Notes under the pieces: model-generated
Seen by the model: only the letters and a program-made list of their open reading frames with translations
Told to the model about the DNA's origin: nothing
Databases searched by the model: none
Translations under genes and position numbers: made by a program
Assembly (NCBI GenBank): GCA_034670305.1
Contig: JAXMNT010000042.1
Coordinates: 1-64,000, forward strand
Direction: 5' to 3'
From: Deltaproteobacteria bacterium
GTDB lineage: Bacteria; Myxococcota_A; Polyangia; Polyangiales; Houyiibacteriaceae
DNA: 64,000 nt
Part shown: in pieces, positions 46,893-49,131 of the stretch
Numbering within the stretch: position 1 is the first letter of the stretch
Layout of the letters: the number at the start of each line of letters is the position of its first letter

Positions 46893-47645
46893 CTAGGTCA
46901 CGCGCGACCGCTCAGTCCGGATCGGGCCGGTGGCTCGCCAGCCAGCGGAGTCGCCGCGCTTGGATCTGTGCGCGGTCCGCGGCGGCGGCGAGCCGGTCGC
47001 GCGCTTGGGCGAGGTTCTCTCGCTCTTCGGGATCGGCTTCGGCGGCTTCGGGATCGGCTGCTTCAGGATCGGATTCCTGATCGGATTTGGGATCGGATTC
47101 GGATCCGGGATCGGATTCGCTTCGCGCTGCATGCGTTCGGCCTCCGCTTGCATCGCTCGGCCATCCCTCAGCGGGAAGTCCACCATGTCGATCTGCTGAA
47201 GGAAGCCCGGGCGGCAGTTGGCCACCCACCGAGATCGTCCGTAGCCCGGAGGTTCGGGACGGCTGGGAGGAAGGGCCATGACGCGGTGGTACTCGGGTGC
47301 GGCTGGGGCGAGGGTTCGGGCGTTGGGTGCTTCCGCGGCCGCTTGCGAGACCGCTTCCGCTTCCGCTTTCGCTCCCGCTTCCGCTTCCGAAGCCGAAGCC
47401 GAAGCCGAATCCGAAGCCGAAGCCGAAGCCGAAGCCGAAGCCGAAGCCGAAGCCGAAGCCGAAGCCGAAGCCGAAGCCGAAGCCGACACCGACACCGAAG
47501 CCGAATCCGATCCCGAAGCCGATCCTGAAGCTGGCTCCGGGACGGCAGGTCGCAGGGCTGGTCCTGCGCAGGCTGCGAGGGTCAGCGCCAGTACGAACGT
47601 GAAACGCCCTCTGGCCGTTGGGGGCGAGAGGGCGGGTTCACTCAT
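46893..47645 (-). CDS. Putative lipoprotein with Ser/Ala repeat linker and a copy of the GltE C-terminal segment
   Basis: Lipobox LTLAAC; (SA)n from the hexamer array; [21 protein letters not shown]; Pro-rich tail. May be a pseudogene. Confidence 0.55.
47350..47530 (-). repeat. TCGGC[T] hexamer array (GCCGAA on + strand)
   Basis: About 25 units inside ORF 46893-47645. Confidence 0.95.
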
Positions 47646-47667
47646 CTTCTAGAAGGTGCCTGTTGGC

Positions 47668-49131
47668 TTATTCGGCCGGGGGCTGTTGCTGTTGCTGTTG
47701 GCGCTGCTGCGCCTCGGCTTCGCGTTGCATCGCTTCGGCTTCGGCCTGCATGGCCTGGCCTTCGCGGAGCGCTGCGATCGTGATGTCGATGACCTGGTTG
47801 CGGCCGGGGCGGCAGTCGCCGACCCACTGCGAGGTGTTGCGACGGGCGCGGGCTCGACGCGAGGACGACTGACGACGTTCGCGGCAGCTGCGGGTCACCA
47901 GTTCCACCGTCTCGGCGTACTGCGGGCGGTTGCCTGCTTTGCCGACGAACGCGGTGAAGAACGACTTGGCCCGGTTGAGGTTGGCGATGGTTTCGTCCAT
48001 CGACGAACCGCCCAAGTAGTTGTGGTAGAGCACGCCCAGGTTGAAGTGCGCTTCGGGGCGGTTGCCGTCGATCGCCATCGCCCGTTCGTACTCGGCCTGC
48101 GCCTGCGGGAAACGCTGCAGACCACGAAGGGCTGCACCGAGTCCGAGGTGGGCTTCGTAGTCGTTCGGTCGAAGCTCGACCGCCTTCGCGAAGCTGGCCC
48201 GGGCATCTTCGTAGCCGCGGAACGAGATCGTGACGGCGCCGAAGTTCATCTGGGCTTCGAACATCGACTCGTCGAGCTGGATGGCCCGCTCGAAGTACCG
48301 AAGCGCTTCGATGACGTCGCCCTTCTCGATCTTCACCAGGCCCCACGTGTTGTAGATGGGGGCGTAGTTGCGGTTGATGAGCTGCGCCTGGCGACAGACG
48401 ACCTCGGCGAGGTCGAGCGCAGCCGCGCCGCCCTCCCCCTTGCCGCGCTGGTAGTGCAGCAAGGCCATCTGGTTGAACGCCGGGAGGTAGTCGGACTCGA
48501 TGGCGAGCGCGCGACGCAGGTTGCGAAGCGCTTCGGTCACCTGGGCACCGCCCGCTTCACGCTGCGTGATCGCGAGGTTCACGTAGCCGCTCGTGCACTG
48601 CGGATCCTCGCGGATCGAGCGCTGGAACGCCTGTTGCGCGGGACCGCGGTTGCCCGCGGCCTGATCGAGCAGACCGAGCGCGACGCGCGCCTTGCAGAGC
48701 GGACCGTTGCCGGGCGGGTTGCCCTCTTGGCCACGGCGCGCCTCTTCGGCCACCTGCAGTGCGCGGGTGTAGTGCCCGCGCGCGGCCGAGGTGTCGCCAC
48801 AGTCTTCCGCGACGAGCCCCGACATGTAGATGGCTTCGGCGAAGTTGCCCTGCGCGTCGACCGCTTCTTCGAAGGCCGCCCGCGTCGCGGAACAGCGCTG
48901 CTCGTTCCAGCCCGCTTCCGCGTTCTGGACGTACAGACGTTGCGCCGCGAGCCAGTGGTTGTGCGCTTCGACGCTCACGGCGCCGGCCGCACCGGCGATG
49001 ACTTCGCCACCCTCGGTGCGTGCGGCGTTCTCGTCGTCGACCTCGTCGCCGCCGCCGCCGCCACCGCACCCGAGTGCGATGGCCGTGAGCAAGGAGAGTC
49101 CGTGTCGGTATTGGAACTTGTGCATGTTCAT
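47668..49131 (-). CDS. gltE: GltE/AglT-like TPR lipoprotein
   Basis: Lipobox IALGC; TPRs; ATGA overlap with the gltD stop; position in the gltD-E-F-G order. Confidence 0.82.
   Translation of the reverse strand: MNMHKFQYRHGLSLLTAIALGCGGGGGGDEVDDENAARTEGGEVIAGAAGAVSVEAHNHWLAAQRLYVQNAEAGWNEQRCSATRAAFEEAVDAQGNFAEAIYMSGLVAEDCGDTSAARGHYTRALQVAEEARRGQEGNPPGNGPLCKARVALGLLDQAAGNRGPAQQAFQRSIREDPQCTSGYVNLAITQREAGGAQVTEALRNLRRALAIESDYLPAFNQMALLHYQRGKGEGGAAALDLAEVVCRQAQLINRNYAPIYNTWGLVKIEKGDVIEALRYFERAIQLDESMFEAQMNFGAVTISFRGYEDARASFAKAVELRPNDYEAHLGLGAALRGLQRFPQAQAEYERAMAIDGNRPEAHFNLGVLYHNYLGGSSMDETIANLNRAKSFFTAFVGKAGNRPQYAETVELVTRSCRERRQSSSRRARARRNTSQWVGDCRPGRNQVIDITIAALREGQAMQAEAEAMQREAEAQQRQQQQQQPPAE

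Follow-up and report, generated by a model that had tools for sequence, protein, structure and literature searches.

Results

A 250-Codon Frame between gltE and gltF Contains Two Colinear Pieces of gltE

The window analysed here is a 64,000-nucleotide (nt) stretch of DNA from a marine myxobacterium (Deltaproteobacteria bacterium), contig JAXMNT010000042.1 (C42) of a 7.93-Mb, 105-contig metagenome assembly, in which a glt G1-type gliding-motility cluster runs on the minus strand from 42.7 to 52.8 kb. The spacer between gltE and gltF of this cluster holds an additional open reading frame (ORF) of 250 amino acids (aa) with a lipoprotein-like start. Our analysis suggests that this ORF is, on balance, probably a partial duplicate of the 3' end of gltE that has since eroded, and not a standing part of the Glt machine; the frame would then not, or no longer, be translated into a working protein. 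The coordinates of all features are collected in Table 1.

Residues 138-176 of the ORF align without gaps to residues 434-472 of GltE, with 25/39 identical residues and 30/39 positives (pairwise BLASTP, E 2e-12), and 79/117 bases are equal at the DNA level. This is the gapless copy of the GltE C-terminus that the original prediction, made by reading the letters alone, had placed at 47118-47234 opposite 47716-47832, and it is found exactly there and with the same count of identities. When the whole genome was searched with the 39-aa segment, only the segment itself and GltE were matched (tblastn E 7e-11; next best 0.40), so the similarity is due neither to chance nor to low complexity. A second, shorter piece was found upstream of the first one, where ORF residues 115-131 correspond to GltE 344-360 (AQAEYERAMAIDGNRPE, a strongly conserved TPR helix) with 9/17 aa and 31/51 nt identical (2000 shuffles, P ~0.001). 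Both pieces are colinear with GltE and lie 799 and 598 nt from their respective parents; therefore, the original copy must have been 0.8 kb or more in length, and an in-frame deletion of 201 nt (67 codons) followed. The second piece supports and extends the partial duplication of gltE that was first proposed.

No TPR family of Pfam (E <= 0.01) and no match to the GltE model NF033758 of NCBIfam were found in the ORF, and what is left of the TPR domain amounts to 17 residues of a single helix. Neither the signal peptide nor the tail resembles GltE (shuffle P 0.17 and 0.23, respectively) or any other sequence of the genome, and residues 100-137 likewise have no paralogue there. The other features read from the sequence at the outset, namely the lack of TPRs, an own lipobox (LAAC), a (SA)n linker made from a hexamer array and a Pro-rich tail, are all present.

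A Second Copy Was Found in No Other Genome

In order to see where the motif occurs, ORF residues 100-180 were used as query. They matched 13 of 40 relatives at E <= 2.2e-4, once each and at the end of a frame of 478-590 aa. In the complete set of 88 family genomes, 18 were matched at E <= 0.001, and two matches were obtained in this genome only; in the 17 others the motif occurs once, always at the end of a GltE of 478-622 aa. Likewise, among 41 genomes of the family and order the second copy is confined to this one, no second match outside GltE was found in 64 named loci, and the single locus recovered in a metagenome search is a GltE orthologue. A large protein collection, in which candidates of 137-438 aa only were considered, gave no match to residues 100-180, and the ORF itself is not listed there. 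The motif is therefore how GltE normally ends in some members of this family, and the tBLASTn comparison proposed at the outset as a check on the extra GltE-like ORF has revealed a second copy in none of the other genomes searched. Neither an additional GltE-like ORF nor hexamer arrays of Myxococcota were met with in a literature search.

The Copy Arose in This Lineage and Is Old

Over the 56 codons that are homologous between the two pieces and gltE, the copy is nearest to the gltE of its own genome, with 34/56 residues and 110/168 bases identical; compared over the same codons with the aligned GltE genes of 16 relatives, it shares 19-30 residues and 86-101 bases. At codons 360, 466 and 471, GAG is used by almost every other orthologue, but the copy and its own gltE both have GAA; Val437 is common to both as well. 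Since these synonymous GAA codons are shared and the closest match is the resident gltE, the duplication took place in this lineage, after the split from the genus of relative G004. It is also old, because the resident gltE is nearer to the G004 orthologue (130/168 bases) than to the copy, while third-position differences are similar (27/56 versus 23/56). A simple tandem duplication was considered and rejected, given that nothing resembling the tail, stop or hairpin of gltE follows the motif in the copy and that array B is inverted relative to array A.

Conserved Residues Have Been Lost and Constraint Appears to Be Relaxed

At 25 of the aligned positions, a residue is conserved in at least 14 of 17 GltE sequences. 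The copy has kept 17 of them and changed eight, including three changes to proline (A346P, D355P and A454P) and I452D; the last of these and A454P are both radical and fall within the first half of the helix. Six residues of this region (C440, G443, R444, Q446, E457 and Q469) are invariant in 15 GltE sequences, and the copy retains the cysteine, the glycine and both glutamines, with R444F and E457D as replacements. The CRPG turn is kept. An AlphaFold2 model of GltE calculated from 15 sequences (pLDDT 86.9) predicts a TPR superhelix at residues 54-413, a poorly defined Arg-rich loop and a long helix of 38 residues at 444-481 (pLDDT ~92). The single-sequence model of the ORF, with a pLDDT of 52, has helices at 11-26 (the signal) and 162-176 only, so that the helix of the copy is predicted to span 15 residues versus 38 in GltE.

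On the branch of the copy, 37 base changes could be assigned, spread evenly over the three codon positions (13/11/13), compared with 2/2/5 on that of gltE. With a parsimony ancestor from five outgroups, synonymous changes (Sd) over the 56 codons number 15-17 and non-synonymous ones (Nd) 27-31 on the copy branch, which gives a ratio of non-synonymous to synonymous changes per site (pN/pS) of ~0.53, as against 0.19-0.29 for gltE. The comparison of synonymous with non-synonymous changes, suggested earlier as one way to recognise a decaying duplication, has a divided outcome: the ratio is not near 1, yet it lies above that of the parent. For the copy branch an omega of 0.2 is excluded and 0.5 is best. 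A pairwise dN/dS of 0.28 was set aside as evidence of selection, half of its path being the own branch of gltE.

The Start of the Frame Coincides with a Terminator-Like Hairpin

The gltE-gltF spacer measures 1067 nt here. In 54 relatives, counted from two partly overlapping genome sets, it ranges from 35 to 1314 nt with a median of ~229, and it is longer in one of them only. The RNA of the hairpin that follows the gltE stop is predicted to fold with -33.6 kcal/mol for an 86-nt stretch (z -3.4). It starts 8 nt downstream of the A of the ORF's ATG. The beginning of the hydrophobic core (RFTFVLAL) is encoded by its tail, UUUCACGUU, together with the bases after it. With one and the same rule for stem, loop and T-tail, a terminator-like hairpin was found within 130 nt of the gltE stop in 15 of 58 relatives as well as in the window.

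Two promoter-like elements lie between the ORF and gltF. The distal one matches the pattern GGAACY-N(13-15)-GKTGTYNGA, which is located ~60-90 nt ahead of the sigma-70-like gltF promoter in the gltE-gltF spacers of 14 of 54 relatives and was present in none of 1080 shuffled spacers. We take this GGAACC-type element to resemble promoters of extracytoplasmic function (ECF) sigma factors. The proximal one has counterparts of the form TTGACN-N16-19-TANNNT in the spacers of 35 of the 54. Upstream of the 250-aa ORF, no promoter-like site was found. To place the ORF inside the glt operon, as had been done at first, is therefore loose: it does lie in the cluster, but between the hairpin after gltE and the two elements before gltF. 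Comparison of the spacer with those of 14 relatives yielded array-to-array matches and one match of 27 nt only, and Rfam gave two matches on the arrays within 46200-47900, both far under the gathering scores.

Base composition was compared by G+C content at the first, second and third codon positions (GC1/GC2/GC3). The neighbouring glt genes have ~0.68/0.45/0.84, the whole ORF 0.65/0.68/0.71. Codons 1-36 (0.72/0.69/0.67) and 100-137 (0.82/0.68/0.66) are flat in comparison. Among 113 real-looking lipoprotein ORFs, the first 36 codons have a GC2 of 0.54 +/- 0.08 and a GC3 of 0.78 +/- 0.07, and only one of the 113 is as extreme as the 250-aa ORF in both. The relic motif is coding-like (0.72/0.46/0.82), which may simply be inherited. 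None of the Shine-Dalgarno sequences GGAG, GAGG and AGGA precedes the ATG of the ORF, while gltE, gltF and gltG have one each. That the frame is open at all is weak evidence for a gene, because the 56 homologous codons stayed free of stops in 34-41% of simulations with neutral changes and because other frames are open across the region.

Hexamer Arrays Frame the Copy and Lie Mostly outside Genes in This Genome

Arrays A and B flank a 352-nt stretch with both pieces of the copy, and they form an inverted pair (I1; 47060-47119 with 47472-47531) with arms of 60 nt that are 77% complementary. The whole genome was screened with Tandem Repeats Finder (TRF), which detected 938 hexamer-type arrays of at least 48 nt, with a median length of 167 nt, that together occupy 168 kb or 2.1% of the genome. 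When the 180-nt flanks were classified by codon-position GC, both flanks were coding-like in one frame in 37/938 arrays versus 1074/3000 random sites. In 348 arrays neither flank was coding-like, in 432 one was, 104 lay between differently framed genes and 17 at contig edges; array A belongs to those with neither flank coding-like. Inspection of 20 array sites by eye indicated that the real genes mostly start after the array.

Units such as CCGAAG are present in both orientations, often adjacent to each other. The spacer that separates gltG from the TPR gene next in the cluster is likewise filled with ~300 nt of hexamer arrays (CCGTGT, then CCGAAG-type; 43877-44184), where the gltG-side flank alone is coding-like.

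Remnant or Young Lipoprotein Gene

The remnant is favoured because of the terminator position, the composition of the frame, the loss of conserved residues and the otherwise non-coding nature of the arrays. A series of observations weighs against it. Both pieces are in one frame, the loss of 201 nt was in frame as well, and the pieces themselves are free of indels and stops. Over the last 13 codons of the motif, six codons differ synonymously and one non-synonymously from those of GltE, and 9 of 12 base changes that could not be assigned to a branch are at third positions. The contrast in codon positions between copy and orthologues is modest (Fisher P 0.038 for the 56 codons, 0.12 for the whole gene). 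An omega of 0.5 fits the copy branch ~7 times better than 1.0 (binomial 0.117 versus 0.017), and strict neutrality over the whole history of the copy would be mildly disfavoured by these counts. The estimated age, at a third-position divergence about that between this genus and the genus of G004, is more than would be expected of a bacterial relic without selection. Of all frames, that of the ORF has the highest third-position GC from 47300 to 46881 (0.75-0.93). The N-terminus, with Arg residues, a hydrophobic run and LAAC, fits the lipoprotein pattern [LVI][ASTVI][GAS]C. According to this rule, which is our own heuristic and not a trained predictor and was applied to ORFs of at least 100 aa, 16/11791 non-coding-like ORFs (0.14%) pass versus 113/4843 coding-like ones (2.3%), which makes such a start 16 times commoner in the latter. 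Moreover, a Shine-Dalgarno sequence is found in just 36 of the 113 real-looking lipoprotein ORFs, so its absence is weak evidence. Finally, relative G047 has an intact short GltE-like gene in the same spacer (see below), and short copies of GltE can therefore be kept.

Alternatively, the ORF could be a real young lipoprotein gene, a 'mini-GltE' or proto-gene, with transcripts that pass the weak gltE terminator being translated from the ATG at 47645 and a product lipidated at Cys26. A disordered (SA)n/(EA)n tether would then present what is left of the GltE helix to the periplasm, and contacts of the long helix of GltE could be competed for or supplemented there. We hold this to be possible but rather doubtful, and we keep such a fast-evolving lipoprotein in consideration because of the rare lipobox and the pN/pS of ~0.5. 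It is also consistent with the frame having been kept across the two pieces and the deletion, with the high GC3 of the frame in its downstream part, with the retained CRPG turn and 17/25 conserved positions, with the predicted helicity of residues 162-176 and with the poor U-tract of the hairpin (UUUCACGUU), which makes read-through plausible. However, the signal peptide and residues 100-137 are of non-coding composition, and a stable hairpin covers codons 2-16 of a frame that has no Shine-Dalgarno sequence, unlike the three neighbouring glt genes. Furthermore, I452D and A454P alter the first half of the helix radically, no relative was found in any collection searched and arrays of this kind are nearly always outside genes here.

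The original prediction had gone one step further and proposed that the product could act as a tethered decoy or modulator of Glt assembly. This is unsupported by any measurement, and the radical changes in the helix, its predicted length of 15 residues, the hairpin at the start and the non-coding N-terminal half speak against it. The other proposal, of a new gene assembled from a duplication and a repeat, keeps some probability, since the lipobox is rare among spurious ORFs and pN/pS is ~0.5 and not 1.

Short GltE-Like Paralogues in Another Genus

In G047 (L034:3509-4435), an intact ORF of 308 aa separates the gltE terminator from gltF. Its product carries a signal peptide of its own, has CRPG at its end and shares 38% identity with GltE 166-407 (E 4e-46). 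An orthologue of 321 aa, a lipoprotein with the lipobox LSAC, is present in G012 (L095:1498-2463) at another locus, beside a 443-aa ORF on the opposite strand. The members of this short family are 38-39% identical to GltE 166-407 and end in C..CRPG, and it was found in one genus only, g13. Like them, the 250-aa ORF is an extra, shorter GltE-derived frame with its own signal peptide, in the case of G047 in the same spacer and with the same CRPG. The g13 proteins, however, keep ~240 TPR residues where the ORF keeps 17, have a coding-like GC of 0.77/0.49/0.72 and include an orthologue in a second species.

These genes raise the question of whether the ORF could be the wreck of an older, complete short paralogue of the g13 kind, in which gene conversion from gltE subsequently replaced the 3' end. 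The gene of G047 in the same spacer and its orthologue in G012 fit such an origin, and the intermediate pN/pS would agree with a functional past. Against this, neither short paralogue is significantly similar to the ORF (best E 0.11 and 5.1), the resident gltE is the nearest relative of its pieces, sharing the three synonymous GAA codons with them, an extra conversion event would be required, and the family is limited to one genus. We thus consider this origin very unlikely.

Other sequences were noted in the same spacer of relatives. In G017 (L015/L035), of another genus, ~190 nt of a different hexamer array (GACGTG/GACGCG/GACGTA) follow the gltE terminator, and hexamer arrays are found there in G008, too. 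In G004 (L010:3-932), a 310-aa ORF that runs off the contig stands where gltF is expected downstream of gltE; its translation reads like a reverse transcriptase of the group II intron type. With arrays (G017 and G008), a putative reverse transcriptase ORF (G004) and a short GltE paralogue (G047), the gltE-gltF spacer looks like a recurrent landing site.

Continuity of the Assembly

Sequencing run X1, which may be the source of the assembly, was examined through its Logan contigs. One of them covers 45800-47342, with the start of gltG, gltF, the tail and both pieces, and another one covers 47526-49200, with the lipobox start, the hairpin and gltE; both are free of differences, with depths of 11.1 and 11.4, respectively. 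These contigs establish physical linkage of the copy with gltF and of the lipobox start with gltE. Array A is unbridged, as no contig of X1 crosses 47343-47525, and its length alone is unverified, with whole hexamers keeping the frame. It is hardly credible that a misjoin or shortening of the contig in array A has brought the lipobox start and the GltE-like pieces into one frame: although this is a 105-contig metagenome assembly with 938 similar arrays and the gap in X1 falls on one of them, both contigs agree with it at equal depth, both sides are in the order and orientation of relatives, a copy just 65% identical to gltE is no collapsed repeat, and any whole number of hexamers preserves the frame.

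Runs X5-X7 come from other studies and contain relatives that are ~90-97% identical in gltE, gltF and gltG. The bins 46826-46939 and 47168-47509 are uncovered in them, which was not counted as absence. Record 13 of X5 lies on 47596-47757 with 73 further letters that do not fit, and record 12 on 46642-46784 with 33; this is at most a hint that the stretch from the hairpin to the gltF promoter differs in that relative.

The glt Cluster

Gene order and names (Table 1) follow Luciano et al. 2011 (PMC3169522), and the order gltD-E-F-G is also found in relatives. The gltE product has TPR matches in Pfam and matches NF033758 with 5.9e-22, under the curated cut-off. The nearest GltE loci in named records belong to metagenome-assembled genomes labelled Polyangiaceae, Polyangiales, Sandaracinaceae or Myxococcota.

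Two further observations concern the neighbouring genes. The listed GTG start of gltD (window 52780-52814) is probably too early, an ATG 15 nt downstream with GGGAGG before it giving MRVSIKLAL... In GltE, Cys416 and Cys440 (window ~47812-47886) are invariant in 15 sequences and stand on either side of the Arg-rich low-confidence loop, which would be compatible with a periplasmic disulfide between them; the copy retains the second Cys only.

Table 1. Features of the gltE-gltF region and the surrounding glt genes (window coordinates)
Feature	Position	Strand	Description
gltD	49128-52814	minus	TPR
gltE	47668-49131	minus	487 aa; lipoprotein signal, TPR superhelix 54-413, Arg-rich loop, C-terminal helix 444-481
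Parent of piece 1	48052-48102	minus	GltE codons 344-360, helix of last TPRs
Parent of piece 2	47716-47832	minus	GltE codons 434-472, CRPG turn and first 29 residues of long helix
250-aa open frame ('mini-GltE')	46893-47645	minus	ATG 23 nt after gltE stop, 3 nt after in-frame TAG
Terminator-like hairpin after gltE stop	47596-47641	minus	Core stem 47634-47605, then UUUCACGUU; encodes ORF codons 2-16
Lipobox-like LAAC (Cys26)	47568-47579	minus	Heuristic lipobox rule
Hexamer array A	47329-47531	minus	(GCTTCG)n = (AS)n, then (GAAGCG)n = (EA)n; TRF, repeat family D1
Putative relic piece 1	47253-47303	minus	ORF codons 115-131, copy of GltE 344-360
Putative relic piece 2	47118-47234	minus	ORF codons 138-176, copy of GltE 434-472
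Hexamer-type array B	47025-47119	minus	NPIPDP... in ORF frame, start of Pro-rich tail; inverted versus array A; TRF
Tail	46893-47024	minus	Basic, Pro-rich, without detectable relative; codon-position GC 0.58/0.80/0.89
ECF-sigma-type promoter-like element	46755-46782	minus	GGAACC-N14-GGTGTCGGA, upstream of gltF
Sigma-70-like gltF promoter	46664-46693	minus	TTGACC-18-TACAGT
gltF (cglF)	46343-46591	minus	NCBIfam NF033764 1.4e-18; likely GTG start after GGAGG
gltG	44252-46267	minus	NF033760 1.8e-132; Pfam FHA; TonB-C-like

Discussion

The following course of events would account for the remnant. The 3' part of gltE, at least codons 344-472, was duplicated in this lineage at a spacing of ~0.8 kb, and the copy probably came to rest behind the terminator of gltE and ahead of the promoters of gltF. 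Since then, the 201 nt between the surviving pieces and everything past the helix have been lost, and hexanucleotide microsatellite arrays now frame what is left. As these arrays are free of stops and multiples of three in length, they join an ATG in the hairpin, the pieces of the copy and the tail in a single frame of 250 codons, whose lipoprotein-like start probably arose by chance. Before its decay, the copy may have belonged to a working short GltE paralogue, which would fit the pN/pS of ~0.5.

The nearest known system is GltE itself (AglT, MXAN_4869) of the Agl-Glt machinery of Myxococcus xanthus. The two pieces correspond to part of a late TPR helix and to the CRPG turn plus the first stretch of the 'lengthy helix' (PMC11761067) in the neighbouring GltE orthologue, and the ORF shares with GltE an N-terminus of the lipoprotein type. 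It differs in having neither a TPR domain nor a match to the GltE model, in its size (250 aa versus 470-490), in a helix with 15 of 38 residues predicted and in not being conserved in relatives. With gene-fragment pseudogenes and proto-genes it has in common that it is a truncated copy beside its parent, with an internal deletion, relaxed constraint, restriction to one lineage and no detectable expression signals. What sets it apart from them are pieces devoid of frameshifts and stops, a pN/pS below 1 and a well-formed lipobox. Its (SA)n stretch after Cys26 also gives weak NCBIfam matches to lipoproteins with low-complexity Ser/Ala/Asp linkers (FEA1-related lipoprotein, the SD-repeats of staphylococcal Sdr/Clf), but these concern low-complexity parts only and reach 31.9 bits versus a cut-off of 250, and the arrays are mostly outside genes here.

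If the ORF is a relic, the finding is of value for annotation, as the 250-aa 'lipoprotein' would have to be left out of the list of Glt components. It would also illustrate that, where GC content is high, microsatellites without stops can fuse debris into long ORFs that look plausible. A more far-reaching interpretation, which we consider unlikely, is that of a gene caught at birth in a motility cluster, in which a terminator hairpin with its T-rich tail would provide the start and hydrophobic core of the signal peptide, a microsatellite the disordered tether and the decayed gltE duplicate a short helix, and whose product could, from the periplasm, tune the docking of GltE on GltD and GltG. 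If the ORF is translated, this route from terminator, microsatellite and gene fragment to a gene would be a documented one, and its product would be a natural fragment of the 'lengthy helix' of GltE, whose role in the periplasmic Glt complex is still being worked out (PMC11761067).

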